This document shows, in pieces, positions 1,078 to 28,427 of a stretch of 64,000 nt of DNA. This DNA is from a phage. The stretch lies in the sequence record PX880103.1; one strand, written 5' to 3'. The position numbers were made by a program, and so were the translations under genes. The stretch's first letter is position 1. Each line of letters begins with the position of its first letter. Below the pieces are notes generated by a model that saw only the letters and a program-made list of their open reading frames with translations, searched no databases and was not told where the DNA came from.

Positions 1078-1350
1078 TTATTTGTTCGTATACATCTCTA
1101 GATATCGATATACACCCTCAAAACCCTCGTTGAATTCGTCGATGAGGGTTTTCTTATCTTCTTGGGTTAATTCAGAAACAATTTTACGGAATGAATTCTG
1201 ATTCAACTTTCTACCTTCATGCATTACTCCAATCTCATTTAGAAATGCAATAAAATTAGCACGATTCTCAACAATATCTTCTCTGGAAAATTTAATCAAA
1301 ATAGACGCAACAGTAATAATTTCACGAACTGTATCAATGTTTTTATTCAT
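1078..1350 (-). CDS. asiA: Anti-sigma70 factor AsiA
   Basis: 90 aa; sequence recognisable as AsiA (MNKNIDTVREIITVASILIKFSREDIVENRANFIAFLNEIG...); ATG confirmed at 1348-1350. Confidence 0.9.
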   Translation of the reverse strand: MNKNIDTVREIITVASILIKFSREDIVENRANFIAFLNEIGVMHEGRKLNQNSFRKIVSELTQEDKKTLIDEFNEGFEGVYRYLEMYTNK

Positions 1351-1362
1351 TAACTATACCAC

Positions 1363-1515
1363 TCAATTAGCTGACTTTGTTATAATATCATCAGACGCTT
1401 GATTTGTAAACTGGTCTGTGTTATTTTCTTCAAAAATTTTTTCTACGAATTCCTTGAACGATTCACGTTCCTGAGCTACATTATGCTCGATTACTTTTTC
1501 AAGATTATGACTCAT
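1363..1515 (-). CDS. Small hypothetical protein (50 aa, asiA.1 position)
   Basis: Below track cutoff; ATG overlaps arn stop (ATGA), ends before asiA; acidic protein MSHNLEKVIEHNVAQERESF... Confidence 0.35.
   Translation of the reverse strand: MSHNLEKVIEHNVAQERESFKEFVEKIFEENNTDQFTNQASDDIITKSAN
1382..1411 (-). promoter_or_regulatory. Early promoter (GTTTAC-N18-TATTAT) upstream of asiA
   Basis: Minus-strand GTTTAC at 1406-1411 and TATTAT at 1382-1387; approximate. Confidence 0.45.
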
Positions 1516-1790
1516 TCGAAATAATCTTCAATTTCATAATCAAGGACATAAATCATTATAGTTTTTAATACATCATCAATACTTTTTCCTGGAGCTGGAA
1601 TTACGTAAAAATATCCTGCTTTTGAGAGGTCTTTATAAGTTCCAATCAAGAAATCATTATTCTCAAGATGTAGTTCTTCAACTAATTCATTGACAATTGA
1701 ATGGTATAAATTTGGTAGAAACTTATATAGCTTTTCTAGAATATCAATTTTGATTGTGTATTGAACCACGGACTGAGAATCAATAATCAT
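1512..1790 (-). CDS. arn: Anti-restriction nuclease Arn (McrBC inhibitor)
   Basis: 92 aa, acidic, matches T4 Arn in size and position between asiA and motA; ATG with AAGGGGAAGG SD. Confidence 0.8.
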   Translation of the reverse strand: MIIDSQSVVQYTIKIDILEKLYKFLPNLYHSIVNELVEELHLENNDFLIGTYKDLSKAGYFYVIPAPGKSIDDVLKTIMIYVLDYEIEDYFE

Positions 1791-1873
1791 AGACCTTCCC
1801 CTTATGTTTCTGTTTGCGATTAGATTCTTTAAACGCTTTCTTCTTATCCTTATGAACAGAAGCTTTATTAAAA

Positions 1874-2092
1874 TTATGTTTTGCGACTAAATTGTTCATA
1901 GTGCTGAATTACCTCTCTTAAACATTTGCATGTGAATGAAAACTTTTTAGCTACACCACATTCAAATATATGTTCTCTTAAATCACGTGTATCGGTATAT
2001 CCCATCTCAACAATAAAATGCCGTATTAGATTTTTATCTTTATCATTGAGAGAATTAAAATAATCAGATTTTGAATTAATTTCCCTGGCCAA
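1874..2092 (-). CDS. Hypothetical protein (72 aa, arn.x position)
   Basis: ORF track; in the arn-motA accessory interval. Confidence 0.45.
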   Translation of the reverse strand: MAREINSKSDYFNSLNDKDKNLIRHFIVEMGYTDTRDLREHIFECGVAKKFSFTCKCLREVIQHYEQFSRKT

Positions 2093-2372
2093 ATTGAATC
2101 ACCTTCAGTTGACGTTTTAATTCTTTTATCATTTCTTCGTTCATCGCAATATAAAGATCGCGTAAAGCAGGTTTTAGCATTCCATTTACTGGAGAACTAA
2201 ATGGGCACACATAATCTTTTCCTACGAGCTTTTTAGTGAATTCCATATTACAGAACTGAAATGCCGGTTCATTGGCATAAATTCCCCATTTGGTTGACAT
2301 CATTTTATTAGCATATTCCAGCGCCTGGATTTGATTCATAATTCCATCAATTTGAAACTGTTTAATATTCAT
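2076..2372 (-). CDS. Hypothetical protein (98 aa)
   Basis: ORF track; tightly packed with neighbours. Confidence 0.5.
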   Translation of the reverse strand: MNIKQFQIDGIMNQIQALEYANKMMSTKWGIYANEPAFQFCNMEFTKKLVGKDYVCPFSSPVNGMLKPALRDLYIAMNEEMIKELKRQLKVIQFGQGN

Positions 2373-2833
2373 TAGTAAAGGTCCTCAGAGTAAAGTTCTT
2401 TTTCACTACCACCACGTTCAATACGTACTTGTCCAGCGTAAGTTGCAATAATCATTGCTTCTTCACGTGTCCAATAATTACTATATTGGTCAATAAACCC
2501 TTGGTCATCATCACAAACTTGCTGAGTAACTAATTGAGATTTAACTACATCTAAAACTTCTGCCATATCTTTAGAATAATGACGAGCACCTGGAATAATA
2601 AGAGTTCGTCCATCTTTTAATTTAAAACGGTTGGCTGCACAGACAATTCGTCGTTGATACTTTTGGTTTTCATCCCAGTACGCAGTCTGCCAACAAATTT
2701 CAGGAACTTCATCTAAAACATTTTGTTCTGTATATTCACCACCGTGAGAAGCTAATTTAGCAGCCAGACTTTCCGGAGTCTCACGCGACAAAGCTTTATC
2801 TAACAGAGCTAAACGTTCTTTAAAAGTTTTCAT
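2372..2833 (-). CDS. Hypothetical protein (153 aa)
   Basis: ORF track; stop/start overlap with flanking ORFs. Confidence 0.55.
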
Positions 2834-3159
2834 TTAAACCATCCTTTAATACGTTGCCACAAAGTTTTCTGTTGAGCTTTGTTAACACCAATTGAGCGAA
2901 TAACTGGTTGAGATTCCTGGAATTCTTTATAATCAGCAAGGTAAATTTCGTAAGCTGCATCCGTAAAGGAACTTATCGCTGCCATAAAATTATTGCGAAT
3001 ACCTACTGGAGCATCTTTACTTTCACGAATAATCATGTATTTACCAGTCTTAATCTTTACAATAGTTCCAAGATAAGCTCCATGGTACCAAATATCCCAA
3101 CCCTCTTGAGTAGGTTCTGCGCAACGACGAAGTTCATTAACAATTTCTAACTTGTTCAT
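2830..3159 (-). CDS. Hypothetical protein (109 aa, motA.1 position)
   Basis: ORF track; 4-nt overlap with upstream gene. Confidence 0.55.
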
Positions 3160-3169
3160 TATTTATTCC

Positions 3170-3805
3170 TCACAGTTCAGATGCTACAGTGATTACAGCT
3201 TCAATGTTTTCTGCCGAGCGTTTAATATCAAGATACACATTACCGTTTTTAGCGATTTTACATGACATTCCGATATCAGTAAATTTCTGAATATGATGTT
3301 CCATCATTTTGTATCCAAAAATTCGCATATTTCCATTATTGTTAATTTCAAAATTACGAATTCCGTGAGTGCGTTTTTCTAAAATAGCAAGATAGTTACT
3401 GCGATAAGTTTCAACCTTTTTAAGAACAAATCCATTTTCATCTAAAAGTTTTAACATGAGGTCTTTATCTTCTTCCATATCGGAAGTAATCTCACGAGCT
3501 TTACGAGTTGCTCGTTTTTTCAGCAGTTCCGGAGCATTTTCCTGTGCATATAAAGTTGCTGCATTTGAAATAATATCTTGAGCTTCACCAGTAATGATTA
3601 ATCCATCACCAGATTTCTCCACTAGGCCTTTTTTAATCAATACCCCAATATTACTATTAACTACCGCGTTACCTAAATCTGGATGCACCTCACGAACTTC
3701 TGCGGCTGTAATGAAATCTTTCTTAGCAATGGTAATTAAAATCGCAGCAGTTTTTTCATTCAGAACATCGTTAGAAGCTTTGATGATGTAAGTTACTTTA
3801 GACAT
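3170..3805 (-). CDS. motA: Middle-transcription activator MotA
   Basis: 211 aa, the size of T4 MotA; ATG confirmed at 3803-3805 behind a GGAG SD in the conserved leader. Confidence 0.9.
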   Translation of the reverse strand: MSKVTYIIKASNDVLNEKTAAILITIAKKDFITAAEVREVHPDLGNAVVNSNIGVLIKKGLVEKSGDGLIITGEAQDIISNAATLYAQENAPELLKKRATRKAREITSDMEEDKDLMLKLLDENGFVLKKVETYRSNYLAILEKRTHGIRNFEINNNGNMRIFGYKMMEHHIQKFTDIGMSCKIAKNGNVYLDIKRSAENIEAVITVASEL

Positions 3806-3935: not shown

Positions 3936-4085
3936 TTACTGCATGACTGTGATAACTGTCATGATAACACGTTGAATTCCAAACGCAAGAAGACCTCCTG
4001 CTACGGCTGGAACAACACCTAACCCTGCCAGTAAAATGCTACCAGATACTAATGCAGCGCTTGTAATACCAATGAATGGACTCAT
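3936..4085 (-). CDS. Small hydrophobic peptide (49 aa)
   Basis: Below track cutoff; ATG overlaps gene 52 stop; MSPFIGITSAALVSGSILLAGLGVVPAVAGGLLAFGIQRVIMTVITVMQ, one or two TM helices. Confidence 0.4.
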   Translation of the reverse strand: MSPFIGITSAALVSGSILLAGLGVVPAVAGGLLAFGIQRVIMTVITVMQ

Positions 4086-5410
4086 TTGATTTCCTCTAAA
4101 TCTTTGGTGTATTCAGTAACTACATCAGTAGTTTTCCAATATTCGTTTTCTTCTTTTTTAGCTTTAGCTTCTTCAGCAAGTTTCTTTGCTTCATCGGAAG
4201 TCATATGAAAAATATTCATTCCAACTAGTTTATCAACATAAGAAGAATACATATCGATTTTCGAAAGTTCTTCGGTCAGTTCTTTACGAGTTTTACCCTG
4301 TACAACAATTTCACCTGAAATTACTTTCTTAATGAAATGTGCCTTGGCAAAGGCTAAACGAAAAGCTGACTCAGTTTCTTTAATTTTGTTATCAATTCGT
4401 TTTTGGACATAAGTTTTACGAACTTCAACAAAGTCTTTAATTAAATCAACTACGTTATCGTAAACTTGTAGTTTTCCTTTCTCATTAATAACCGTAATAT
4501 TCTGAGAACGACGCTCAATCAACCCGAAGTCTTTCATAATTTTTGCATGGCGTTCTTCTTCGTTATCGCTCAAAGAGTATTCTTTGCGGAATTTAACTTT
4601 GAAGCCAAAACCATGCTCACCACAAGCATCATCCCATGTAATGAAGCCTTTATCTTCAAGTGGGTCTAAGATTTTACTCACATAAGTTTCACGATCATAC
4701 TTGTACGGAATCTCAGTGATATGCATTTGAGTTCGTGAAGTAAACTTATATGTTCCACGAATTTCATATTGCCCATCAATTTCAACGACTTCACCGCGAA
4801 ATTCTGGGAATTCTACCTTCGGTTTAGTTACTTTCTTTCCTTGAAGAGCTTGCAGTACAGCTTTCTTGACAGAAGAAACACTATGAGGAAGAATGTAAGT
4901 TGCATAACCAGTTGCAATACCGGAAACGCCATTAAGAAGAACAGTAGGAATAATAGGCAAATAGAAAGCAGGCGGAATGTGTTCTTTATCTTGATGTACC
5001 GGAGCATATTCAGTATCTTTATATACGTTATAGAAATTTTTACTTACACGAGCAAAAATATAACGACTTGCTGCTGCTTTTTGAACGGTACGAGAACCAA
5101 AGTTTCCTTGACCATCTAACAGAGGAAAGTTATTATTCCAGGTGTTAGCCATCAAAGCGCCCGCATCTTGTGCAGAGTTTTCGCCATGGTGATATCCAAG
5201 GTCCGCTACACCACCTGCGATAGAAGCGAGTTTGTGAAACTTATCTTTATTTCCTCGCGCCAAATCAAGAGCTCGAGCAATAACAAATCGTTGAACTGGC
5301 TTAAATCCATCAATCATATTTGGAATAGCACGATTTTCAACCGTGTACATAGCATAAGCCAATGCTTCATTATCAATGATACTTTTTAAATCGCGATTAT
5401 TCAGTTGCAT
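4082..5410 (-). CDS. 52: DNA topoisomerase II medium subunit gp52
   Basis: 442 aa as in T4 gp52; GyrA-like breakage-reunion sequence; ATG confirmed. Confidence 0.95.
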   Translation of the reverse strand: MQLNNRDLKSIIDNEALAYAMYTVENRAIPNMIDGFKPVQRFVIARALDLARGNKDKFHKLASIAGGVADLGYHHGENSAQDAGALMANTWNNNFPLLDGQGNFGSRTVQKAAASRYIFARVSKNFYNVYKDTEYAPVHQDKEHIPPAFYLPIIPTVLLNGVSGIATGYATYILPHSVSSVKKAVLQALQGKKVTKPKVEFPEFRGEVVEIDGQYEIRGTYKFTSRTQMHITEIPYKYDRETYVSKILDPLEDKGFITWDDACGEHGFGFKVKFRKEYSLSDNEEERHAKIMKDFGLIERRSQNITVINEKGKLQVYDNVVDLIKDFVEVRKTYVQKRIDNKIKETESAFRLAFAKAHFIKKVISGEIVVQGKTRKELTEELSKIDMYSSYVDKLVGMNIFHMTSDEAKKLAEEAKAKKEENEYWKTTDVVTEYTKDLEEIK

Positions 5411-5414
5411 AAAT

Positions 5415-5555
5415 TTACCATACTAGTGAATGTAGTGCCATAATAACATCAGAAATGAAAAGCACGACTTGAATTAATCCGAACATTACTCCATAATATA
5501 GTGCTACCAATAAAGTAGCAAGGGCTAATGAATAGCCCAAGATTTTCTTAATCAT
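5415..5555 (-). CDS. Small membrane peptide (46 aa, 52.1 position)
   Basis: Below track cutoff; MIKKILGYSLALATLLVALYYGVMFGLIQVVLFISDVIMALHSLVW; start overlaps upstream stop. Confidence 0.4.
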   Translation of the reverse strand: MIKKILGYSLALATLLVALYYGVMFGLIQVVLFISDVIMALHSLVW

Positions 5556-5706
5556 TAGTGGATAACAACACAAATGTTAAATATGCACACATACCCTGGG
5601 CTAAAGCTTGTGAAAACACACTGCTAGCATCGATACAGATAGTTAAAACACATGCTACTATCCAACAAATAAATGAAATAACTCCTAATAATTTTGCGAT
5701 ATTCAT
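5548..5706 (-). CDS. Small membrane protein (52 aa, ac-like by position)
   Basis: Below track cutoff; GAGGAAA SD; two hydrophobic segments; T4 ac (about 51 aa) sits between stp and 52.1. Confidence 0.45.
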   Translation of the reverse strand: MNIAKLLGVISFICWIVACVLTICIDASSVFSQALAQGMCAYLTFVLLSTND

Positions 5707-5713: not shown

Positions 5714-5794
5714 TCACTGACGTCCGAATACGCCTTTGGTTTTAAGATTGTTACGATAGAACTGCATCACATGTTCGTTATGGAAATTACTCAT
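5714..5794 (-). CDS. stp: Stp peptide (26 aa; activator of host PrrC anticodon nuclease in T4)
   Basis: Translation [26 protein letters not shown]; ATG overlaps ndd stop (TAATG); matches the T4 order ndd-stp-ac. Confidence 0.6.
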
Positions 5795-6249
5795 TAATAT
5801 GCCTGTAAAACAAATTTAAAGTTATCAGCCAACATACGATTCATTTCTTCAAGTGTTTGATACTCAGAATGATGATTACGAGTAAACGCCAAAGCTAACT
5901 GACCTTTTCCAAATCCCGTCGTTAGAGGTTTCATCTTAGAAGCAGGCAAATAAAACACTGTGTATGGAACATTGTTATTTGCAATAGTACGCGCAAGTTG
6001 AGACCGGCGTTGACGAATATGACTTAAAACCGCACTGAATCCTTGCTTAGAACGCTGATTACCTACATAAAATCGTGCAGATACGCATGGATTACTAAAT
6101 GGACCACCGAGTTTACTCACTAAAAAGTAAAATCCAGGTTTAGACAAAATGTCTTTGTGCGGAGTTCCCAAAAACCACTCACCACCCTTGATTGTACCAA
6201 TAACAGTAGCGCCTGCATTATTCAGATCAATAACAGTCATATATTTCAT
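5794..6249 (-). CDS. ndd: Nucleoid disruption protein Ndd
   Basis: 151 aa from ATG at 6249 (track start at 6297 is GTG inside the upstream region); GAGGAAA SD. Confidence 0.85.
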
Positions 6250-6309: not shown

Positions 6310-6525
6310 TTAATCGTCGCAGTCGACGCTCAATTCCCAAAACTCTTCTACAGTATAAGTTTCAGTATCATTTTCAATACAGAAACGTTCATTACTATTG
6401 TTTGCTAAAGTAGCATTAACTGTCATTTTCTCGCTAGTGCTCTTAAGAGGTGAAATACGAATTAACTGATCACCGTTATCTAAACAGAAAATTTCACCAA
6501 CTTTTACATCTTTAAAGATTTTCAT
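6310..6525 (-). CDS. Hypothetical protein (71 aa, ndd.x position)
   Basis: ATG with GAGGTGA SD. Confidence 0.55.
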   Translation of the reverse strand: MKIFKDVKVGEIFCLDNGDQLIRISPLKSTSEKMTVNATLANNSNERFCIENDTETYTVEEFWELSVDCDD

Positions 6526-6533: not shown

Positions 6534-6644
6534 TCAAGGAGTATAAAATCCAAATGCAGTTGTTGACCATCCCATCCAATACGGAAAATTTGCACCGATG
6601 TAAAACACGAGAATATAAAACCAAATACCCAGTAAATTCATCAT
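6534..6644 (-). CDS. Small hydrophobic peptide (36 aa)
   Basis: Below track cutoff; MMNLLGIWFYILVFYIGANFPYWMGWSTTAFGFYTP; start overlaps upstream stop. Confidence 0.35.
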   Translation of the reverse strand: MMNLLGIWFYILVFYIGANFPYWMGWSTTAFGFYTP

Positions 6645-6838
6645 TTTACACCATTCCAAATTGTTTCAACTACTGATTTTAAACCATTTTGATGAATATC
6701 CATTCCGACTACTGCCATCAAATAGATTCCAACTACAACTGAACCTAGCGCAAAAATCAGCATGAAAATGAATAAAGCCGGAAAAATATTATCGAAAAAC
6801 CATTCCATAAATGTAAAAGCACTGCGTTTACGCTTCAT
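6641..6838 (-). CDS. Small membrane protein (65 aa)
   Basis: ATG at 6838 with GAGGAAA SD (track start at 6859 is TTG); hydrophobic core. Confidence 0.5.
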   Translation of the reverse strand: MKRKRSAFTFMEWFFDNIFPALFIFMLIFALGSVVVGIYLMAVVGMDIHQNGLKSVVETIWNGVK

Positions 6839-6845
6839 ATTTTCC

Positions 6846-6959
6846 TCACATAAATCCAAAGTAAACGTTTAACACATCAATCATTAAAACGATTGGGAAT
6901 ATACTCAAAACTATTAGTATTATAACTACATTCCATATAGCTTTAATAATCTTTTTCAT
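6846..6959 (-). CDS. Small membrane peptide (37 aa)
   Basis: True ATG follows the promoter cassette GGAGGAACAGAAA; MKKIIKAIWNVVIILIVLSIFPIVLMIDVLNVYFGFM. The track's 82-aa version is the cassette read in frame. Confidence 0.45.
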   Translation of the reverse strand: MKKIIKAIWNVVIILIVLSIFPIVLMIDVLNVYFGFM

Positions 6960-6987
6960 TTTCTGTTCCTCCGTAGTTGATAGGGTA

Positions 6988-7017
6988 ATAGTACCACGGA
7001 AGAACAGTCTTGTAAAC
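6988..7017 (-). promoter_or_regulatory. Early promoter cassette (GTTTAC-N18-TACTAT plus conserved leader)
   Basis: Minus-strand GTTTAC at 7012-7017 and TACTAT at 6988-6993. Confidence 0.6.
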
Positions 7018-7024
7018 AACTTTT

Positions 7025-7123
7025 TTAAAAATATTCGTAATAAATGTGAATACCAACTACTACCGCTGAAACCTGTGCAACCCACCACGCACAAGCAATA
7101 AGTACAGAATTCATAATTTTCAT
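7025..7123 (-). CDS. Small hydrophobic peptide (32 aa)
   Basis: Below track cutoff; SD TGAGG; MKIMNSVLIACAWWVAQVSAVVVGIHIYYEYF. Confidence 0.35.
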   Translation of the reverse strand: MKIMNSVLIACAWWVAQVSAVVVGIHIYYEYF

Positions 7124-7206
7124 AATAACCTCATTACAAAAGTAAATATTAAACAAATTACTGGAATACTAATTAACCAAACAAAACACCACCACAATGA
7201 ACTCAT
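7120..7206 (-). CDS. Small hydrophobic peptide (28 aa)
   Basis: Below track cutoff; MSSLWWCFVWLISIPVICLIFTFVMRLL; overlaps the next start. Confidence 0.3.
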   Translation of the reverse strand: MSSLWWCFVWLISIPVICLIFTFVMRLL

Positions 7207-7308: not shown

Positions 7309-7866
7309 TTAAATGAAAAGATACCATCCATTGTAGTTGCTTTTTCTTACAACCTTACGAAGGTCTTCTCTGTCACCGATGAACTTCGGAGTGTACTGGA
7401 TGACACCTGGATGAATTTCTTTAGTGTTGAATATAATTATACAGTCAGCGACTTGATGATTTAGAATGGGCCCTAGATTTATTCCAGAACCGTATGGATA
7501 CTCTCCGCTGCATCCTGTTGTTACAGAAATCCAACGTGAGTCAGTTTGGTGTGTCTTAACTTCTACACGAAGCCCGCAGTATTTTGGATGTGCTAAAACA
7601 TCCCATGCATATGTGTACGGATCATCGACATCTTCTTGGCCTTTATTGACATACCCGCTTAGCCAATCTGCTACAAAAAATTCTGCGTACACAGCGATAC
7701 GGCATCTTTCGATAACTTCTGCCTTATCCTGATTTGGGTTTTGTTTTAAAGAGTATCTTGCAGTATCAGCAATTTTGGCCTTCATTTCACTAGTCAAGTC
7801 ACTGTTCGATAGGGTAAATGACGGAATCTGAAATAGTCTCTGCAAACCCGGATTCGTTTTCTGCAT
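7309..7866 (-). CDS. denB: Endonuclease IV DenB
   Basis: 185 aa as in T4 DenB, between ndd and rIIB; ATG confirmed. Confidence 0.8.
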   Translation of the reverse strand: MQKTNPGLQRLFQIPSFTLSNSDLTSEMKAKIADTARYSLKQNPNQDKAEVIERCRIAVYAEFFVADWLSGYVNKGQEDVDDPYTYAWDVLAHPKYCGLRVEVKTHQTDSRWISVTTGCSGEYPYGSGINLGPILNHQVADCIIIFNTKEIHPGVIQYTPKFIGDREDLRKVVRKSNYNGWYLFI

Positions 7867-7953: not shown

Positions 7954-8148
7954 TTACTTGAATTGTGCAATTCTTTTCTCTAGACATTCAGCATAAGATT
8001 TCATTGAGATAAACTGCGAAAGCAGCAGTTCTTGCTCAACTGCACTAACTGTTAGAAACTTTGCGCTTTCTAAAAATTTACTCAGTGCATTAATTTTGAG
8101 CATTAATTGATCGTATTCTTCTTTTACTCGTGCTTGATAACCTAACAT
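7954..8148 (-). CDS. Hypothetical protein (64 aa) between rIIB and denB
   Basis: ATG with AAGGAAA SD; bracketed by two GGGCCGAAGCCC hairpins. Confidence 0.55.
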   Translation of the reverse strand: MLGYQARVKEEYDQLMLKINALSKFLESAKFLTVSAVEQELLLSQFISMKSYAECLEKRIAQFK

Positions 8149-8162: not shown

Positions 8163-8178
8163 AAGGGCCGAAGCCCTT
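8163..8178 (-). terminator. GGGCCGAAGCCC-type hairpin overlapping rIIB stop
   Basis: aagggc-cgaa-gccctt; weak T-run, may be an RNA-stability stem rather than a terminator. Confidence 0.4.
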
Positions 8179-9115
8179 ATTTAAATTGTTCAGTAACGTC
8201 TTCAACTACTTCATATTGGCAGGTACGCATTTTAGCATCGTTGTAATCAATCGGAATTGATACTACATCGCGAGGATGAACTTTAACTTTTACAACTCGG
8301 CTGGTTGAACTACCAAAGTGACGAATATAAGATTTAGAACACACATGCAGACCACGAGAACAAGTCTGTGTATCATCGTCATTCACACGAGTACGCGGCA
8401 TTTTAACTACTTTACCCGGACTGTTATCAAAGGTATTTGAGTGACAGTCAAAGTAATTGCTACGAACTACTTTCCAAGCATAGAAGTAACCATCTTCTGT
8501 AATTTCAATATCGTTTGCTACCAAGAAATCAAAGAGTCGAGATACCGCTTTTTGGCTTGGGTTTTCCAACAGATTTTCCAAGAACGGAAAATAAAATTCA
8601 AAGTTTTCGCCTTTTTCCATCGAGTCAAGAATACGATCAACCAAACCAGACCGCAATTCAATATTTTGATAGAACAAGCTTCCACCTTCAATTCGAACAT
8701 CGCCGGAAATATATTTTTCAACAGCACGACGAACATTAATTTTTTGTGCCGCTTCTTCCAACTTATCCGCTACAAGCAGATTAAGAATTTCCTGGAAGTT
8801 TGAATGAGTATTAGGAGTTGCGTTATAAGTTACGCCATCAACAGTAATTGAAATGAATTTTTTAGATGCATTCCAAATAATGTCAGATTTAGCAACTGGA
8901 GCAATAACTGCATCGCTATTAACTTTAACTGTAATATCACCGCTAATAGTAACTTTAGGGTGTTTAGCTTCTTCAGCATTTTTCAAAACACGGCGGATTG
9001 TGTCAACCGATACACCTTGCCAATCAGCCAATTCCTGTTGGGTATAATTACCACTTGAATACAGCTTAACAATTTCAGCTTGTTCGTTTTTGGTCAGGCA
9101 TTTAATATTGTACAT
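8177..9115 (-). CDS. rIIB: rIIB protein
   Basis: 312 aa as in T4 rIIB; adjacent to rIIA; ATG confirmed. Confidence 0.9.
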   Translation of the reverse strand: MYNIKCLTKNEQAEIVKLYSSGNYTQQELADWQGVSVDTIRRVLKNAEEAKHPKVTISGDITVKVNSDAVIAPVAKSDIIWNASKKFISITVDGVTYNATPNTHSNFQEILNLLVADKLEEAAQKINVRRAVEKYISGDVRIEGGSLFYQNIELRSGLVDRILDSMEKGENFEFYFPFLENLLENPSQKAVSRLFDFLVANDIEITEDGYFYAWKVVRSNYFDCHSNTFDNSPGKVVKMPRTRVNDDDTQTCSRGLHVCSKSYIRHFGSSTSRVVKVKVHPRDVVSIPIDYNDAKMRTCQYEVVEDVTEQFK

Positions 9116-11543: not shown

Positions 11544-11573
11544 ATTATACCACATCCTTGTGGTAAAGTAAAC
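11544..11573 (-). promoter_or_regulatory. Early promoter for rIIA.1/rIIA (GTTTAC-N18-TATAAT)
   Basis: Minus strand GTTTACtttaccacaaggatgtggTATAAT; -35 overlaps gene 39 stop. Confidence 0.65.
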
Positions 11574-21274: not shown

Positions 21275-21894
21275 TCAACTACCTCAATATCATAAACTTT
21301 AAATGTTCCAAATGAATCGTGTAATTTTTCTTTTGAAATAGAAGTTATTCTATACTTTCCAATTGGAATCATCCATTCTTGTTCACGCACAATCATCATT
21401 AAGTTATCAGTACGCTCTGAATCTAGCCCATCAGTATCTTCATATGTGTACTTAAACTCAGTATTAGGAGAAGAAAGTATAATATCGCTGATATGGTCAG
21501 AATAATTAAAAGCTTTATTAGTTTTTAAGCGAAGTATTATTTTAGTAAAATATTCAGCATAAGAAAAAGAACATGCTGTGAGCAAACTAGTAGTAAATGA
21601 ATCTACTCTATTCGTTGAAAACACTTCTCCAACTTGTAAATCTTTAATAAGTTCTTCTGTTGATTTTGATATACCACGATATAACTGATAAGGCGATTTA
21701 GTTAAATGCTTTTTAATGATTTTATTCAACTGCCTATGAAGAGCTTCATTCTTTTTGGCTTCCATACATTGCCAAAGAATGGATTGTTCAAAGTCGGTAA
21801 ATTTTTCACAGACCTTTTTATACATATCATATTGAAAATCGACGCTTTCAGCTTTTATAGATAACTGTTCAACATCTGTAAGATTAATAATCAT
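21271..21894 (-). CDS. modB: ADP-ribosyltransferase ModB
   Basis: 207 aa as in T4 ModB; GGAGG SD; ATG confirmed. Confidence 0.8.
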   Translation of the reverse strand: MIINLTDVEQLSIKAESVDFQYDMYKKVCEKFTDFEQSILWQCMEAKKNEALHRQLNKIIKKHLTKSPYQLYRGISKSTEELIKDLQVGEVFSTNRVDSFTTSLLTACSFSYAEYFTKIILRLKTNKAFNYSDHISDIILSSPNTEFKYTYEDTDGLDSERTDNLMMIVREQEWMIPIGKYRITSISKEKLHDSFGTFKVYDIEVVE

Positions 21895-21961: not shown

Positions 21962-22144
21962 TTATTTTGCCCAGGGAGCCCAGGGCGGAGGGTCAAGATG
22001 GTATGAAGCTAGTTCTTCTAGAAGAGCATCTGGGGCTTCAATTCCATAATTCTGTAATACTATACGGTACTCTTTCTTATAATCACTAGAATCATTCTGG
22101 ATATTCGTAGTATGATTATCTTCTAACATCTCAAATAAATCCAT
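21962..22144 (-). CDS. Hypothetical protein (60 aa)
   Basis: ORF track; ATG confirmed; proline/tryptophan-rich C-terminus (PPPWAPWAK). Confidence 0.45.
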   Translation of the reverse strand: MDLFEMLEDNHTTNIQNDSSDYKKEYRIVLQNYGIEAPDALLEELASYHLDPPPWAPWAK

Positions 22145-22152
22145 ATTAATTC

Positions 22153-22623
22153 CTAGCGATAAAAACCAAAATGACGATTAGCTTCAATAATCTTTCTTTC
22201 TTCTTCGGACATTCTCCAGCGTAGTCCAACATCAAAATGAGCCCAGACCATCTTAACAAATGCGTGTATGTCTTTAATATCTTCAATAATGAATGTTTTA
22301 CTTTTCGAAGGTTGACTCGCTAATTTAACTTTATCATCTTCAAACAGGTCAAAAAGACCATATTCATGAGCTCTTTTATAGCCTTTAATAATTAAAGCTT
22401 CAGAAGAAGAAAACGGTGAATCAGTATTCTGCAAAATATCTTCAGTATGCTTTATAATTAGAATAACATTTTCTGGATATTTTCTTTCTTTTATATCTTT
22501 AATTAAAATATCCGGATTTTCTGCTAAAGGAATAATTAATGAACAATTTTTATCAAGCGTATTTACTGATTTACCTTCTTTAGACATAAATTCTATTGAA
22601 TAATGTTTTGCTACTTCAATCAT
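22153..22623 (-). CDS. Hypothetical protein (156 aa)
   Basis: ORF track; ATG confirmed. Confidence 0.5.
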
Positions 22624-22768
22624 GTGATTTCCTTTTGCCTACTAATGGACCGTCAGGAATTTTGTTTTCCTGGATATATTTCTCATTTTCTTCCATCATT
22701 TTACTGCCAATTTTAAGAAGCAAATCCATTGCTTCATTTGCTTTAGCTTTAGCCTCTTCTAACGTCAT
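22616..22768 (-). CDS. Hypothetical small protein (50 aa)
   Basis: Below track cutoff; [33 protein letters not shown]...; overlaps next start by 8 nt; weak SD. Confidence 0.3.
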
Positions 22769-22776
22769 ATCTCTGT

Positions 22777-22980
22777 TCACGATTTATCCCCATAGATGTC
22801 TCTCATTAATTTAAGCGCTGAGCGTTCTAATTTCTTTTCTTTCTCAGCACTAATCATTGATTTCATCCATTCTTCTGATTCGTTCTGCATTTCTTTATTT
22901 GCTTGTTCAATCCAACCATCATCAATATACATTGAGTTTGGTCTATTGAACCATTCAAGAATCTTCTTGAGAGCTTTCAT
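22777..22980 (-). CDS. Hypothetical protein (67 aa)
   Basis: ORF track; ATG confirmed. Confidence 0.5.
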
Positions 22981-23440
22981 TTGTTTTACCTAAAACGATA
23001 GTATGGACACCGTCAAATTCATGAATTTTTAGCAAATTTGGATTTAAATTATTCCATAAAGAGGTAATAAAATATGATAGCGCACTTTCGTCCGTAATTA
23101 TAAATTTATTTCCTTTATCTATTTTCCAATCATATATTGAATCGTATGAATAGAAGGATAACGGTTTATTATTATAGTATGCTTCAGCAACATCAATATA
23201 GTTAGATTTAGTAAATGCTTGAATTGCCATAAATGGAGAATTTTGTACAGTTTCAATAATTCCGATCTTTTTAAGTTTTATTTCAACATCTTCTGGAACT
23301 GGCATTGAAATAAAATCTTCTACTAGATACATGTCATTGTCATATCTTTTATCAATCATTACTGCTACTGTAATTGGAACATCCTTGACAAACGCCATAC
23401 TAATACTATTGATAGACATTTCAAACAAAATCGCTTCCAT
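22955..23440 (-). CDS. Hypothetical protein (161 aa)
   Basis: ATG at 23440 with GAGGAAA SD (track start at 23473 overlaps upstream ORF). Confidence 0.5.
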
Positions 23441-23448
23441 AATTTTCC

Positions 23449-23787
23449 TCAATCGCAAGATGTAGATGAACAACTAGAATCACAAGAACTTCCACATGAA
23501 TCGCCCGTCCATACATGAACAGGAACATTAGTATCATATGAATCAGAACTAGACTGTGTATTCTGCGTATTAGATGATGTAGGTGTTGACCAGCGCCAAG
23601 GATTTTTATAATATTCTTGGGCTTCTTCATAAGTCATAGTAACTGCTTCTACTGTTCCATCTCCCATATAAACATATTCAACTACAGTTAAAGGAAGATA
23701 GTCATTTGAAATAGGAACTACACCTTCCCCAGGAGTCGTAGAGAAAAAATCCGTAAAGAAACTTTTAAACCAATTAAAGATAAACAT
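23449..23787 (-). CDS. Hypothetical protein (112 aa) with Ser/Cys-rich C-terminus
   Basis: C-terminus ...[20 protein letters not shown] preceded by a Ser/Thr/Gln-rich linker; ATG confirmed. Confidence 0.5.
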
Positions 23788-23993
23788 TACAAAAAGCCTC
23801 TTTTGAATTCGACTTGCTTCTCACCATAATCATACCGAATCTCTGCATTAAACTCAACAGAACCATCTGCGTACATCATAAATGAATGCACGACAACTTC
23901 TGTAGACCATGGTTGCAATTCATATTTCTTCATTACATGCCGTGAAATGATAATATCTAAATCTTCATTTGGTTTAATCCAACGATTTAACAT
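23787..23993 (-). CDS. Hypothetical protein (68 aa)
   Basis: ATG with GAGGAGAG SD, downstream of the 24020-24049 promoter. Confidence 0.5.
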   Translation of the reverse strand: MLNRWIKPNEDLDIIISRHVMKKYELQPWSTEVVVHSFMMYADGSVEFNAEIRYDYGEKQVEFKRGFL

Positions 23994-24091: not shown

Positions 24092-24328
24092 TTAACCACC
24101 TATTTCTGTAGGGGTAAACATTGCAGCATTCTTAGTTTTCCAATCAGCTGCATCAGAAACTACGGTAGAATATGCTGCCTTTTCAGAAGGAAAGATCTGA
24201 TAATGAGAATCTGCGATACGATGCTCGTTAGAATAAATTTCAAACGGAACAGAAACTTCCATACCTTTAACTTCTTTGCCTTCACCTGCTGGATGAGTAA
24301 AGGTCTTGATGTTAACGAAACCACCCAT
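24092..24328 (-). CDS. soc: Small outer capsid protein Soc
   Basis: 78 aa; resembles T4 Soc (GFVNIKTF...EGKE..AHYQIFPSEKAAYSTV). Confidence 0.8.
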   Translation of the reverse strand: MGGFVNIKTFTHPAGEGKEVKGMEVSVPFEIYSNEHRIADSHYQIFPSEKAAYSTVVSDAADWKTKNAAMFTPTEIGG

Positions 24329-24370
24329 AATAAACTCCTTTATTGTTTAATTACAGGTGTATTTATATCA

Positions 24371-24889
24371 TCAATAACCTCGGTCTTGACGAGCGAAGTT
24401 TTCAGCATTTTTCAGATAATAAAGTTTAAAGATTTCTTCAGCCGTAAGACCGAGACCTTGGAACATGTTCAGAACGAAATGAAGAATATCAATCATTTCG
24501 AATTTAATTTCCAACTGGTCTTGTGGAGATAAGTCAGTAATCAGAGTTTCACGACGTTCACCGTGTTGCGACTTCCAAGGCTTCCATACAGCAGATGCAT
24601 CTTTTTCGCCATTGCTCATACCACCAAGAGAAGTCAGAAGTTCGCGGAATTCATCATCAATATAATCTTTCTGATTACGCAGCCAATCAACAACTTCACC
24701 TGCAGTAGCCAAATCATCAGGATGACGGTTATATTCAGGTTTATCTTTAGCTAAACGAACCTGCAGAGATTTCTGCATATCAAGCATAACTTGCAACGGA
24801 TCTTTTTCATCACCGAGAATATCCCAGTATTCATTTTGAGCTTTATCAGCGCCTTCGATCAGTTGACTACATTCGTTGAAATGTGGCAT
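24371..24889 (-). CDS. 56: dCTP pyrophosphatase (dCTPase/dUTPase) gp56
   Basis: 172 aa as in T4 gp56; MazG-like acidic motifs; ATG confirmed. Confidence 0.85.
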   Translation of the reverse strand: MPHFNECSQLIEGADKAQNEYWDILGDEKDPLQVMLDMQKSLQVRLAKDKPEYNRHPDDLATAGEVVDWLRNQKDYIDDEFRELLTSLGGMSNGEKDASAVWKPWKSQHGERRETLITDLSPQDQLEIKFEMIDILHFVLNMFQGLGLTAEEIFKLYYLKNAENFARQDRGY

Positions 24890-24890
24890 G

Positions 24891-25541
24891 TTATTTTTCC
24901 TTTCTTATGAAGTTTTCTATCATATGTCTATAGCAGATATTAGGATAACCTGCCTTGACAGCTATTTTATTAAATTTTGTGCGCTTAGGTCTATTATTAT
25001 AAACCCATAATTCATAAAGCGCATCATAACTATTCCATATTTCTCCTCGCCTAGGATTTGGTAAACCATATCGAGGTGAATTTTTACCGCTAAATCTTCC
25101 TTTTCGGGCTTTACTCATATTAGCCTTGGCTTCATCGGATATAATTTTACCTTTATGAGCTAGACGCATTTTGGCTTTAGTTTCTTCTGGGGTCTTTTTG
25201 CCTTTAATCCATGACGGCTTGCCATATCTAGGATTATTTTCACCCGAGAAAAGAACAGAGTTTTGGATTTTAAGGGTTTCTATTAATCTACTTGTTAATT
25301 TAACACCTTTATTATATCGCATTAAATTTACAGCATAATGCAATCCTCTCACATCTGGATATATTTTAGTTAATAATCTATGAGCTATAAAATGCTCACG
25401 CGCAGTTAACTCAACAAGATTGTTTTTGTCATCTGCTCCTCCTATACATCTAGGAATTATATGATGGCGTTCTTTATATCCGCCAAGATGCCGGCATTTA
25501 GCTTTTGTAATTAAAGCCGAGTAAATTTTTTGGTAATTCAC
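24891..25541 (-). CDS. Free-standing HNH homing endonuclease with NUMOD-like repeats
   Basis: GTG start with AAAGGA SD; HNH core GGYKERHHIIPRCIGGADDKNNLVELTAREHFIAH; repeated GxNxPxYGK / K(A/G)K motifs; C-terminus paralogous to 41877..42731. Confidence 0.75.
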   Translation of the reverse strand: MNYQKIYSALITKAKCRHLGGYKERHHIIPRCIGGADDKNNLVELTAREHFIAHRLLTKIYPDVRGLHYAVNLMRYNKGVKLTSRLIETLKIQNSVLFSGENNPRYGKPSWIKGKKTPEETKAKMRLAHKGKIISDEAKANMSKARKGRFSGKNSPRYGLPNPRRGEIWNSYDALYELWVYNNRPKRTKFNKIAVKAGYPNICYRHMIENFIRKEK

Positions 25542-25611: not shown

Positions 25612-25812
25612 ATGGTACAAAAATTAATGGCACTTGTTAATGCCATCAAAGGTAATAAGAAACGTATAGCTTTTACTATTTCTGCTATGGTAGGAATTTT
25701 ACTCTGGAATTTTGTTTTATCGCCAATTGCTATTGCTCATGGCGTTAATATTCCAGTAATTACTCTTGATACATTCGTAGATTTAGCATTTGCTTTAGTT
25801 GGGTTAATTTAA
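25612..25812 (+). CDS. Small membrane protein (66 aa), plus-strand
   Basis: Strong SD AAGGAGGA 6 nt before ATG; two hydrophobic segments; the only plus-strand ORF inside the minus-strand early block. Confidence 0.5.
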   Translation: MVQKLMALVNAIKGNKKRIAFTISAMVGILLWNFVLSPIAIAHGVNIPVITLDTFVDLAFALVGLI

Positions 25813-26837
25813 ATCTTAGCATATTTAGATAGCCGCATTTTAGCCATCAACCCTTGAGCAATATTATTTTTCATATATTCCATAATTTGTTCAGGGGTTG
25901 CACCTTCCTTTCTAATCATATCATTAACATCTTTTGATTTCCAGGGAGATTTGTCCCAAAACATAACCCTTTCTCCTGCATCAACTAATTTAGTCATTCG
26001 TTTAATAGTGTCAGGGTGACGAGGTTCATTATCTAAAACCCATACACGTCTATCTTTAAATGGAACAATTTCTAGGTCTAATTGACCACCCGTAATAGCT
26101 ATACCATTTTCAATAAAAAGTGAATCTATAGGTCCTTCTAGAACATATACATCACCATCTTTAACTCGTTCGACTCCATATATTTTTGTTGCCTCAGGAT
26201 AAGCTTTAATGGTGATATATTTTTGGGGAGCATCTTTCTTTAATGCACGTCCTTGAAAAGACTCAGCTTTTCCATTAGCATTATAAATTGGAATAACAAG
26301 ACGAGGCTCAGAAATTTCCTTTTTATATGTTCCCGGTGCTATGCTATTAACCAATTTAGGCCATTCGGTTGTAAACCAAAGATATTTCCATTTATCCTTT
26401 GGAATACAACGAGCTTTTACATATTTTATAATTGGATGGTCTTCCGTCAGTTTATCTAATCTAACACATGACGGAAGAGATTTAATTATTTTCTTCTCAG
26501 GTTGTTTAGGAAGTTCTTTAGGTTTTTCTACTGGACGACTTTTACCTTTTTCTTTTCTTATTTCAAAGATATACTCACGATATAAATCAGGTTCAAACTC
26601 CTTTAAATATATTCCGATTGGTGCATGATAGTTGCAGTTATAACAATGAATATTTCCTTCATTATTATCACCATAATACCATCCACGAGCTTTATTCTGG
26701 TCGGTTTTTGAATCTCCACAAACAGGGCATCTAAACCGTAATTTAAAAGTTGAACTATTATTTACTTGTGTGAATTTAGGTAAATGAGCTAATGCACGAT
26801 ACGCAAACTCATTATCAATCCAAGGTATTGATGACAT
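25809..26837 (-). CDS. 61: DNA primase gp61
   Basis: 342 aa as in T4 gp61; N-terminal zinc ribbon CPVCGDSK...CYNCNYH; ATG confirmed. Confidence 0.9.
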   Translation of the reverse strand: MSSIPWIDNEFAYRALAHLPKFTQVNNSSTFKLRFRCPVCGDSKTDQNKARGWYYGDNNEGNIHCYNCNYHAPIGIYLKEFEPDLYREYIFEIRKEKGKSRPVEKPKELPKQPEKKIIKSLPSCVRLDKLTEDHPIIKYVKARCIPKDKWKYLWFTTEWPKLVNSIAPGTYKKEISEPRLVIPIYNANGKAESFQGRALKKDAPQKYITIKAYPEATKIYGVERVKDGDVYVLEGPIDSLFIENGIAITGGQLDLEIVPFKDRRVWVLDNEPRHPDTIKRMTKLVDAGERVMFWDKSPWKSKDVNDMIRKEGATPEQIMEYMKNNIAQGLMAKMRLSKYAKI

Positions 26838-26839
26838 TT

Positions 26840-27004
26840 TTACTCTTCTTTTTCTTTAGATTCCTCTTTTTTCTTTTTAGGAATCTGTTCAGGACCTTTA
26901 TTTACTACAGCGCCTGATGTTGTTCCAGTAGAGATATTTTCAGGATTACCACCTGAATCTCCAGCGACCATATCTTCTTTGATAAATTCTTTATATGTTT
27001 TCAT
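26840..27004 (-). CDS. Small protein (54 aa, 61.1 position)
   Basis: Below track cutoff; SD AGAGG; fits exactly between 61.2 stop and primase start; lysine/glutamate-rich tail. Confidence 0.45.
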   Translation of the reverse strand: MKTYKEFIKEDMVAGDSGGNPENISTGTTSGAVVNKGPEQIPKKKKEESKEKEE

Positions 27005-27005
27005 A

Positions 27006-27632
27006 TTAACCTCTATTCATAAAAGCATTAAAAATTTGGTCATCAATAGAAACATTTACTTTAGACTGTTTTTCTGATGGTAATTCATATCCACATATTA
27101 CAATTTTGTGATCAATATCAAAATACACAGAAGCAATATGATTAATGATGTTTTCAGTAAAGTCTAAATCAACATCAATATCTTTTTGACCACAGCCCAA
27201 AGGATAAATAATGCGAGTAATTCGATTATCTTTAACAAAGATTCCACCGACATACTCTGTGCTGCGTTTAAAGTCTACACGCCGACGAAATGAAAAATAT
27301 TCAGGCTCTTTATGAGCTCGGCTCATAGGGCACAACGAATAACTAGAATAAGAGATGTCAAATCCTACGCCTTCAATATGAACTAAATTGTCATGATTAA
27401 ACCAATTATAATCATATGCCAAGTCCATTAGATTGTCATATGTGAAAGGCACCGGATTAACATCATTGGTCACAAGCATATAATTAGCAACTGCTATAAT
27501 TTCATTATTTTTAACGAATACAAACCGTGATTGATGCGAATGACCTGGACCTGCGTTTTCACGATTAATGATATAACACTGGGCACCTTTATATTTGTAC
27601 GTGTCTTTACACTTGTGCATTTGATAAAGCAT
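27006..27632 (-). CDS. Hypothetical protein (208 aa, 61.2 position)
   Basis: ORF track; ATG confirmed. Confidence 0.6.
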   Translation of the reverse strand: MLYQMHKCKDTYKYKGAQCYIINRENAGPGHSHQSRFVFVKNNEIIAVANYMLVTNDVNPVPFTYDNLMDLAYDYNWFNHDNLVHIEGVGFDISYSSYSLCPMSRAHKEPEYFSFRRRVDFKRSTEYVGGIFVKDNRITRIIYPLGCGQKDIDVDLDFTENIINHIASVYFDIDHKIVICGYELPSEKQSKVNVSIDDQIFNAFMNRG

Positions 27633-27925
27633 TATTCACCTACCACTTCAGCGATGATATTTTTATTATTAAAGTTTTTATCGCAATACAGAACATAATT
27701 ATACTGCATTACACCACCAGACTTAAGCTGTTTTTGCACTTCAGCTTTCATTTCAGGACGATCGCGCTCAACGATATTCATAATATCTGCTTCAATTTGG
27801 GTTTCAACTTCAATCTGATCTGCAGACATAGACCATTCACACAAATCTTTATCATAACCTGCCATAGCAGGCTGAGCAGCACAAGAAGCTAAAGCAAAAA
27901 TTGTAGCAAAGATAAATTTTTTCAT
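27632..27925 (-). CDS. sp: Spackle periplasmic protein (superinfection exclusion/lysozyme inhibitor in T4)
   Basis: 97 aa with signal peptide MKKFIFATIFALASCAAQPAMA; size and position match T4 sp (61.3). Confidence 0.7.
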   Translation of the reverse strand: MKKFIFATIFALASCAAQPAMAGYDKDLCEWSMSADQIEVETQIEADIMNIVERDRPEMKAEVQKQLKSGGVMQYNYVLYCDKNFNNKNIIAEVVGE

Positions 27926-27985
27926 GATAATCTCCTCAGTAGTTTATGTTTATATAGTATCTCAATTTCCAACAAAAGTAAACAG

Positions 27986-28243
27986 TTATTTTAAAACTTC
28001 TGCGTAATCACATGTTACAAACTGTTTCTCTAGCTTGACGATTTTACGAAAGTATCTTTTGCATTGACGAATCTGTCGCTTCGTAGGGCGAACAGCAAAC
28101 TTAATAAATTCCACTCGACCAAATGGAGGACTTTCTTCTGCTGGAATATCTAGCACCAATTCCCACGTATCTGCAATAAGTGCTTTGAATTGCGTATTTT
28201 TCCTGACGTTATACGGAGTAGGTTTAAATAAAACAATATGCAT
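27986..28243 (-). CDS. Hypothetical protein (85 aa, 61.4 position)
   Basis: ATG at 28243 with GAGGA SD, one nt after dmd stop (track start is TTG and overlaps dmd). Confidence 0.5.
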   Translation of the reverse strand: MHIVLFKPTPYNVRKNTQFKALIADTWELVLDIPAEESPPFGRVEFIKFAVRPTKRQIRQCKRYFRKIVKLEKQFVTCDYAEVLK

Positions 28244-28244
28244 A

Positions 28245-28427
28245 TTATCCTCGGCAATCCACTTCACACACTTTCTTGTCATCAATGAAAGCTTTAACTA
28301 ATGCTTTATTAACTTCAGCATATTGAGTAGTAGCCCATTGAACGTCATCTTTCATCATTGTGGTTTCTTTAGTAAACATACTTTCATTCTTAAACCACCC
28401 CATAAAAACTACCTTTACCAATTCCAT
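28245..28427 (-). CDS. dmd: Dmd antitoxin (inhibitor of host RnlA/LsoA RNase toxins)
   Basis: 60 aa; sequence MELVKVVFMGWFKNESMFTKE...KKVCEVDCRG recognisable as T4 Dmd; GAGGAG SD. Confidence 0.8.
   Translation of the reverse strand: MELVKVVFMGWFKNESMFTKETTMMKDDVQWATTQYAEVNKALVKAFIDDKKVCEVDCRG

Follow-up and report, generated by a model that had tools for sequence, protein, structure and literature searches.

In T4-like phages, genes that counter bacterial defence have been mapped both to compact loci and to sites dispersed through the early half of the genome. One such locus lies around dmd: dmd and tifA form an operon behind an early promoter, TifA (gene 61.4) inhibits the toxin ToxN, AdfA (gene 61.2) was identified as a counter to DarT, and the locus was proposed in 2022 to be an ‘anti-TA (toxin–antitoxin) island’, of which the remaining genes are candidates (Srikant et al. 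2022, eLife; PMC9391042); the mechanism of TifA is described in PMC10853763. The T4 protein Y16O is a homodimer that binds 3′ cyclic ADP-ribose (3'cADPR) and abolishes type I Thoeris (bioRxiv 10.1101/2025.07.12.664507), and T2 carries arn.4-arn.3-arn.2-arn.1-arn as one middle operon, which the host small RNA ArcZ stabilizes against RNase E (bioRxiv 10.64898/2026.06.19.733364). HIDEN-SEQ, a 2025 application of transposon sequencing (Tn-seq) to T4 (bioRxiv 10.1101/2025.11.20.689424), has challenged T4 mutants with defined defence systems. Here we analyse a 64,000-nucleotide (64-kb) stretch of phage DNA, sequence record PX880103.1 (the window), and in particular its interval 1078–28427, in which a first-pass annotation had described a dense repertoire of takeover and anti-defence genes and had proposed, by guilt of association, that the small open reading frames (ORFs) between them serve additional counter-defence functions. 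We find that the interval is very probably the conserved early/middle region of a T4-like phage, in which takeover and counter-defence genes are tightly packed and the unassigned small ORFs form an accessory mixture.

A megablast search with positions 1078–20000 matched 984 phage records, all of them T4-like phages of Escherichia and Shigella, the best of which are about 96% identical over the entire query; identity of 96% across 19 kb extends to many Tequatrovirus genomes. On this basis the window is assigned to a T4-like Tequatrovirus, with predicted T2/T6-type DNA glucosylation, as a beta-glucosyl-HMC-alpha-glucosyltransferase of family phrog_842 stands in place of T4 beta-gt and segA. An ortholog of this enzyme in phage Bas37 has reportedly been linked to evasion of Mokosh type I.

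Proteins from the matching regions of the T4 reference (NC_000866) were compared with the window by tblastn. Between gene t and mobD.4, by way of rIIB/rIIA, gene order and strand are those of T4. Every gene between 1078 and the end of the window lies on the minus strand, such that the interval is transcribed leftward, and its limits are exact, with 1078 the stop of asiA and 28427 the start of dmd. Within these 27.3 kb are about 60 genes on one strand, with approximately 94% of the sequence coding; 33 of the genes encode fewer than 100 amino acids (aa). The takeover, anti-defence and exclusion genes named previously were all recovered at full length on the minus strand, with order conserved and 94.7–100% identity to T4 (Table 1). 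Chance is excluded as an explanation, as the tblastn E-values of these genes run from 1e-16 (for the 26-aa Stp) down to 0. The assignments withstand the sequence comparison with T4 that the first-pass annotation had named as its refuting test. Their placement stands as well, including that of pin further to the right, with the exception of imm, which lies not within the interval but 4.8 kb beyond its right end; the misplacement may be explained by RB69, in which imm lies between sp and 61.4. The ‘density’ of takeover genes is a trait of T4-type genome organization and not a statistical anomaly.

Early-type promoter patterns (GTTTAC, an 18-nt spacer and a TATAAT-like element) were found in the gaps 5′ of dmd, mrh.2, modB, srd, motB.2, motB, rIIA.1, ndd.4 and asiA, the last of these directly upstream of its gene and within asiA.1. 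MotA-box-like sites are enriched (18 observed compared with 5 expected). The MotA-box and strict early-promoter patterns found part of the expected promoters, and a relaxed scan was required for this set. Scanning all 64 kb for Rfam families and for tRNA genes gave no match.

At the right edge of the interval lies the compact dmd locus. As in the described operon, dmd and tifA are adjacent, on one strand, behind a promoter-like site at 28457–28486 that agrees with the early promoter reported for them (PMC9391042). adfA lies 350 bp beyond dmd-tifA, with sp between, as in other T4-like phages; dmd, tifA and adfA are 98–99% identical to T4, and there is no difference of substance from the island of T4-like phages. 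In RB69, imm, imm.1 and four ORFs specific to that phage are additional members of the island (17.3–20.9 kb, between genes 61 and 41); the gene 61–41 island therefore gains and loses small genes among related phages and is a plastic locus. In RB69 AdfA, position 164 decides neutralization of DarT1, with histidine permissive; His165 of the protein encoded here aligns with RB69 R164, and the AdfA of this phage thus has the residue type of the neutralizing allele. Inhibition of ToxN, DarT and RnlA by the TifA, AdfA and Dmd of this phage is predicted from what is known of the T4 and RB69 orthologs.

A further small gene of the interval, denB.1, went unmentioned among the genes named in the first-pass annotation and is the third of its small ORFs to be characterized. 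The published forward cloning primer for T4 Y16O maps to 8121–8148 with 1 mismatch and, because the published primers encode both ends of denB.1, Y16O and denB.1 are the same gene. The denB.1 product scores 68.7 bits against the Sequestin family PF21825 (gathering cut-off 24.8), retains all four pocket residues (R7, E11, Q45 and R59 in SequestinB numbering) and differs from the tested T4 protein by a single substitution, G3 for A3. By orthology with T4 Y16O, it is a putative anti-Thoeris sponge.

These results bear directly on the claim of guilt by association. The description of the small ORFs as uncharacterized does not hold for 61.2 (AdfA) or 61.4 (TifA), and association with known counter-defence genes is borne out for these two and for denB.1/Sequestin; for arn.1–4, 61.1 and the three ORFs between dda and dexA, we found no evidence in its favour. 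Of the three groups of examples given in the first-pass annotation, two had been partly overtaken by published work. The general idea is reasonable but not new, having its precedent in the 2022 proposal. Moreover, the experiment suggested for it—disruption of the ORFs and plating on hosts with defined defence systems—has largely already been run on T4 by HIDEN-SEQ. In that work, arn.1–4, 61.1, 61.2, 61.4, dexA.1/2, dda.1 and motB.1/2 were non-essential on K-12, as was asiA.1. [quoted passage not shown]

We propose that the clustering reflects timing. Early units are expressed within minutes of injection, and each of the small products acts on one host target (sigma70, McrBC, 3'cADPR, DarT, ToxN or RnlA) by binding, modification or sequestration. 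Some 60 minus-strand genes lie behind predicted sigma70-type early promoters; among them are orthologs of the T4 takeover genes asiA, motA, motB, ndd, denB, modA, modB and srd (95–100% identical to T4), and genes with a proven part in counter-defence or exclusion, namely arn, stp, rIIA/B, denB.1/Sequestin, sp, adfA, tifA and dmd. Products that act before host immunity fires would have to come from early genes, and the stretches between essential replication genes may tolerate gene gain, loss and duplication; the extra GoF-like ORF, the swapped motB.1, the third dexA-type paralog and the exchanged homing endonucleases described below would be such changes. The remaining small ORFs without an assignment, about 29, are real, dispensable accessory genes under purifying selection. 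We infer that perhaps a third of them are defence-specific inhibitors and that the rest include modulators of host RNA and transcription as well as small membrane peptides for exclusion or lysis control.

Several points weigh against this interpretation. The promoters were called only by consensus match, and the counter-defence fraction is a guess. A T4 adfA deletion was without phenotype on the DarTG1 system examined, which makes even the ‘known’ AdfA assignment allele- and host-dependent. Across six defence systems and several clinical isolates, the text of the HIDEN-SEQ preprint does not name arn.1–4, dexA.1/2 or 61.1; the challenges named tk.4, 30.3, 57B, alt and nrdC.1 instead (bioRxiv 10.1101/2025.11.20.689424).

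A possible, if somewhat doubtful, alternative is that the small ORFs mainly modulate host and phage expression and physiology—RNA stability, transcription, nucleoid and membrane—for fitness in particular growth states, and do not primarily oppose dedicated immune systems. GoF, MotB.1 and Frd.2 belong to an LSm-like family linked to mRNA stability (PMC12152347), and this phage has an extra 125-aa LSm-like relative of GoF, for which tblastn with T4 proteins gave no T4 match. The ORF at the motB.1 position is only 50% identical to T4 MotB.1 across 46 aa and ends in a C-terminal domain of the MotB DNA-binding type. modA.3 is an mrh paralog, as each matches Pfam T4_MRH (mrh.1 matches DUF7206), and 39.2 encodes a zinc ribbon. 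Envelope functions are indicated by the lipoprotein 39.1 and by eight tiny ORFs of hydrophobic character, and T4 Tn-seq reports condition-specific genes unrelated to immunity, such as vs in minimal medium (bioRxiv 10.1101/2025.11.20.689424). Against this stands the record of similar small early ORFs, which have repeatedly proved to be immune inhibitors once the right host was used. Separately, an early-expressed phage lipoprotein such as 39.1 is a candidate superinfection-exclusion factor.

The opposite extreme, that most of arn.1–4, 61.1 and the dexA trio inhibit specific bacterial defence systems, we consider unlikely. It draws on the precedent of TifA, AdfA and Sequestin, three small neighbours that proved to be inhibitors, and on ORFs that are dispensable on K-12 yet kept under purifying selection. 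It also draws on the arn operon, in which arn.1–4 are co-transcribed with arn, the T2 authors suggesting likewise (bioRxiv 10.64898/2026.06.19.733364). The T2 arrangement is present here throughout: the gene order, the 70-nt arn.2–arn.1 spacer with GCAUU (GCATT in the DNA) at the T2 position and the predicted ArcZ pairing site CCAGGGAAAT, which is a perfect 10-nt complement to AUUUCCCUGG of E. coli K-12 ArcZ, all consistent in sequence with an operon of the T2 type. The ATG at which arn.4 starts is ATA in T4, with no other difference in the 41 codons upstream; the 68-aa T4 annotation may be a truncated form. For arn.2, no Pfam or NCBIfam match was found, and asiA.1, to the left of arn, has no significant Pfam match.

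Arn.3, a product of this operon, is the best remaining lead overall. It consists of a variable helical N terminus and a core domain of about 95 aa and has 158 close homologs. A profile search of 1.84 billion representatives returned 3045 clusters at E ≤ 1e-3, 1326 of them at E ≤ 1e-10, mostly stand-alone proteins of 90–110 aa, equivalent to Arn.3 without its N-terminal third. By tblastn the domain occurs in 1623 phage records, and its carriers appear to span T4-like, Vi1-like, rV5-like and phiKZ-like phages. It is essentially confined to phages, with 2 loci in 185,579 species genomes, both on phage-like contigs. Invariant residues (R84, H85, Q111, G112, F113, D115 and R123, together with a C-terminal LFSEDLY that includes a tyrosine) are enzyme-like or pocket-like, and this conserved basic/polar pattern hints at a site that binds a phosphate-bearing molecule or acts on it catalytically. 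Searches of NCBIfam, of the sequences in the PDB and of a local copy of Pfam gave no match, no solved fold was matched by the confident predicted model, and the N-terminal parts of ten longer members, possible fusion partners, are without a Pfam match. Of the individual ORFs, Arn.3 is the foremost candidate for a new activity directed at nucleotides or nucleic acids. A tentative and rather improbable proposal is that its domain serves counter-defence in many phages as a new enzyme or sponge, with an immune signal derived from a nucleotide, or modified nucleic acid, as its target, and that it is co-expressed with the McrBC inhibitor Arn. The context in cellular genomes, with two loci, is too thin a base for a function. 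In one of these, on a phage-like contig binned with an Aureispira metagenome-assembled genome (14–1069 and 3923–4282), a phage nicotinamide phosphoribosyltransferase (NAMPT) gene is followed, about 3 kb downstream, by a gene with the Arn.3 domain, a single case.

The three ORFs between dda and dexA, singled out previously, are real: dexA.1, dexA.2 and an 86-aa ORF without a T4 counterpart that was found in 309 phage records. dexA.1 and dexA.2 are 27% identical (E = 8e-9), are both covered by phrog_1700 and are fused as a 159-aa protein in some phages, such as ime09; by sequence, they are paralogs. The 86-aa ORF is probably a third, tandem member of the family, its link being weaker (only phrog_5263 is shared with dexA.2, E = 1.8e-5). 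AlphaFold2 models DexA.2 with confidence as a bundle of three helices, at a pLDDT (predicted local distance difference test) score of 91.9; fold searches returned generic bundles from the PDB and, from BFVD, many 75–90-aa unknowns of T4-like phages. The idea of the trio as Sequestin-like sponges is not supported and was set aside for want of evidence, as none of the three matches PF21825 and the DexA.2 model is a generic bundle; dexA.2 and denB.1 aligned only at E = 0.03 in a five-sequence database. Among T4 proteins, DexA.2 is one of only two found to be conjugated by Cap2 to the CBASS cGAS, at Lys5 (PMC10097602), which favours an immune role; Lys5 is conserved in this phage. T4 dda.1-dda-dexA.2-dexA.1 form a single transcript headed by dda.1, about 35% of which is NAD-capped.

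Other evidence tells against so broad a counter-defence role. The T4 Tn-seq challenges report no hit for these genes in the text of the preprint, the ORFs resemble no known anti-defence family in either sequence or fold, and the data for the neighbouring GoF and MotB.1 point toward RNA biology (PMC12152347). For arn.1–4, 61.1, dexA.1, dexA.2, the 86-aa ORF, motB.2 and dda.1, comparison with Pfam, NCBIfam and PHROG gave no significant match to a family of assigned function, and no solved structure matched. Furthermore, proven T4 anti-defence genes, ipI as well as 57B/acb1, vs.4/acb2, 30.3/adfN, tk.4/adfM, alt and nrdC.1 (the last six far outside the interval), are scattered across the entire early half of the T4 genome. 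A neighbourhood of 28 kb therefore has little power to discriminate, and association at this scale is weak evidence; within the 1.4-kb adfA-sp-tifA-dmd cluster it is stronger.

Most of the small ORFs match phage-only families over their full length, and codon-level comparison with T4 gave ratios of nonsynonymous to synonymous substitution (dN/dS) of 0–0.3 where substitutions suffice to judge (for example, 0.27 for modA.3 and 0.03 for mrh.2); as judged from sequence, they are real genes under purifying selection. No gene approached a dN/dS of 1 against T4 as a marker of an arms race, in a two-sequence comparison of little power. It is highly improbable that the small ORFs represent artefacts of annotation or filler in decay: many are shorter than 60 aa, starts vary between phages (ATG compared with ATA for arn.4; ndd.3 and ndd.2a split in T4) and 61.1 is of low complexity, but dN/dS is far below 1, most have full-length Pfam or PHROG matches, Shine–Dalgarno sequences precede start codons, stop and start codons overlap, coding density is 94% and homologs number hundreds to thousands. 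In T4, ribosome profiling or proteomics evidence of translation exists for several of the small ORFs.

As first stated, the finding of takeover genes with counter-defence candidates between them restates the textbook organization of the T4 early region together with the 2022 hypothesis, now partly validated, and would leave the view of specialists unchanged. New here are the selection evidence for the small ORFs, the tandem dexA paralogs with their three-helix model and the phage domain of Arn.3. The practical value is a shortlist of real, conserved and dispensable accessory genes, of which Arn.3, the dexA.1/dexA.2/86-aa trio, motB.2 and the ORF at 53090–53260 are worth testing specifically, since new immune inhibitors continue to emerge from T-even phages. 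Should the Arn.3 domain prove to be an immune antagonist, the family would extend to well over a thousand sequenced phages.

Table 1. Features of the interval and of the remainder of the window in order of position, with protein identity to the T4 counterpart.
Feature	Position	Strand	Identity to T4	Description
asiA	1078..1350	-	98.9% (90/90 aa)	Anti-sigma70 factor and middle-transcription co-activator
asiA.1	1363..1515	-	96%	50 aa, acidic, isoelectric point (pI) 4.6
arn	1512..1790	-	96.7%	Acidic, pI 4.4
arn.1	1874..2005	-	100% over 42 aa	43 aa; phrog_6212
GCATT motif	2017..2021	-		RNase E site in T2; 11 nt upstream of arn.1 start codon
arn.2	2076..2372	-	94.9%	98 aa; dN/dS 0.11; phrog_1844
ArcZ pairing site (predicted)	2079..2088	-		arn.2 +285..+294, same position as in T2
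arn.3	2372..2833	-		153 aa
arn.4	2830..3159	-	100% over C-terminal 68 aa	109 aa (68 aa in T4 annotation); phrog_1594 full length
motA	3170..3805	-	98.1%	Middle-promoter activator
motA.1	3936..4085	-	100%	49-aa hydrophobic peptide, predicted membrane segment
gene 52	4082..5410	-	99.8%	Topoisomerase II medium subunit
52.1 and ac	5415..5706	-	97.8% and 96.1%	Small hydrophobic membrane proteins
stp	5714..5794	-	100%	PrrC-activating peptide, 26 aa
ndd	5794..6249	-	98.7%	Nucleoid disruption protein
ndd.1	6310..6525	-	97.2%	71 aa, acidic, pI 4.3; dN/dS 0.10
ndd.2 to ndd.6	6534..7206	-		Series of very small hydrophobic ORFs
ndd.3/ndd.2a fusion	6641..6838	-		65-aa membrane ORF; full-length match to Pfam DUF7248
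denB	7309..7866	-	97.8%	Endonuclease IV
denB.1	7954..8148	-	98.4%	T4 Y16O, Sequestin-family 3'cADPR sponge (putative here); PF21825, E = 4e-19
rIIB	8177..9115	-	99.7%	RexAB counter
rIIA	9127..11304	-	98.6%	RexAB counter
rIIA.1	11315..11518	-	98.5%	67 aa; Pfam T4_RIIA1; early promoter 11544-11573
gene 39	11573..13393	-		Topoisomerase large subunit, unsplit, 606 aa
39.1	13460..13720	-		86 aa; lipoprotein-type signal peptide MKYINRSIAALVLVVSLVGC, LVGC lipobox; phrog_902
Extra 125-aa ORF	13726..14103	-		GoF/LSm-like relative; phrog_622, E = 2e-29; weak goF profile match
39.2, goF, cef	14100..14913	-		39.2, zinc ribbon
motB	15086..15574	-	96.3%	DNA-binding early protein; early promoter 15619-15648
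ORF at motB.1 position	15651..16190	-		179-aa variant; phrog_2333 full length; Pfam motB PF17613 at residues 141-174
motB.2	16193..16693	-	90.9%	166 aa; PF26820; dN/dS 0.14
dexA	16757..17440	-	100%	Exonuclease A
dexA.1	17440..17682	-	88.8%	80 aa; second half of phrog_1700; dN/dS 0.28
dexA.2	17675..17920	-	87.7%	81 aa, predicted three-helix bundle; dN/dS 0.19
Extra 86-aa ORF	17907..18167	-	no counterpart	RB14ncORF015c type; phrog_4967
dda	18174..19493	-	98.4%	Helicase
dda.1	19490..19801	-	99%	103 aa; Pfam Phage_Y01A PF25693
srd	19803..20549	-	100%	
modA	20672..21274	-	99.5%	ADP-ribosyltransferase
modB	21271..21894	-	94.7%	ADP-ribosyltransferase
modA.2, modA.3, modA.4, srh, mrh, mrh.1, mrh.2	21962..23993	-	94-98.5%	
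soc, gene 56, HNH homing endonuclease	24092..25541	-	46% (soc), 73% (gene 56)	soc divergent
HNH homing endonucleases	24891-25541 and 41877-42731	-		Related pair, phrog_655
gene 61	25809..26837	-	98.8%	Primase
61.1	26840..27004	-	96.3%	54 aa, low-complexity Lys/Glu-rich tail; phrog_1823
61.2 (adfA)	27006..27632	-	98.6%	Anti-DarT factor A; Pfam AdfA PF23813, E = 1.5e-136
sp (spackle)	27632..27925	-	96.9%	Periplasmic superinfection-exclusion protein
61.4 (tifA)	27986..28243	-	98.8%	ToxN toxin inhibitor; Pfam DUF7279
dmd	28245..28427	-	98.3%	Antitoxin-like RnlA/LsoA inhibitor
dmd-tifA promoter (early type)	28457..28486	-		GTTTAC, 18-nt spacer, TATAGT; ends 30 nt upstream of dmd
beta-glucosyl-HMC-alpha-glucosyltransferase	31519..32367	-		phrog_842
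imm	33252..33503	-	97.6%	Superinfection immunity
nrdD	49820..51637	-		Uninterrupted 605-aa ORF
pin	52149..52634	-	96.9%	Lon protease inhibitor (PinA)
nrdC.1	53740..53982	-	100%	Septu inhibitor in T4
Two ORFs in place of T4 mobD	61785..62770	-		153-aa membrane protein (phrog_944); 173-aa y05I-like protein

Among the remaining features, the fusion of ndd.3 and ndd.2a is made by a 1-nt insertion relative to T4, and its end-to-end match to DUF7248 points to the split form of the T4 reference as the exceptional one. motB.2 has 89 homologs, all T4-like, with no PDB match and no other informative match, and 61.1 has no Pfam match. Beyond the interval, nrdC.1 is a further proven anti-defence gene in the window, its T4 counterpart reportedly inhibiting the Septu defence system (bioRxiv 10.1101/2025.11.20.689424). 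At the position of T4 49.3, the minus-strand 56-aa ORF at 53090–53260 matches phrog_3402 (E = 3e-39; 830 phage records); the label of that family, ‘antitoxin from a toxin-antitoxin system’, has an untraced basis, and no Pfam or NCBIfam family was found for the ORF. The 173-aa ORF in place of mobD has y05I-like N- and C-terminal Pfam domains and is possibly a paralog of the adjacent mobD.1.

Compared with T4 (NC_000866, 160.9–168.9 kb for rIIA to gene 41 and 0–20.6 kb for gene t to rIIB), the region has the same order and strand, with 95–100% protein identity for nearly every gene and with early promoters and arn operon regulatory motifs common to both phages. The differences are local. T4 lacks the extra 125-aa and 86-aa ORFs, and its motB.1 is replaced here by the 179-aa variant. 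The translational-bypass element of T4 gene 60, 60.1 and mobA are absent and gene 39 is unsplit; absent too are mobC and the T4 nrdD group I intron with I-TevII. In place of T4 segF and dam stands an HNH endonuclease, no dam homolog being found anywhere in the 64-kb window, and a second HNH endonuclease lies between genes 46 and 46.1. arn.4 is longer than its T4 annotation, ndd.3 and ndd.2a are fused, 39.1 has the lipobox LVGC where T4 has LINS, and soc is only 46% identical. In other phages and mobile elements, anti-defence genes form islands, and there too small, early, non-essential genes of different specificities adjoin one another. Here, by contrast, genes essential to replication and transcription are interspersed among them across tens of kilobases, and there is neither a discrete cassette nor a marker gene such as aca.

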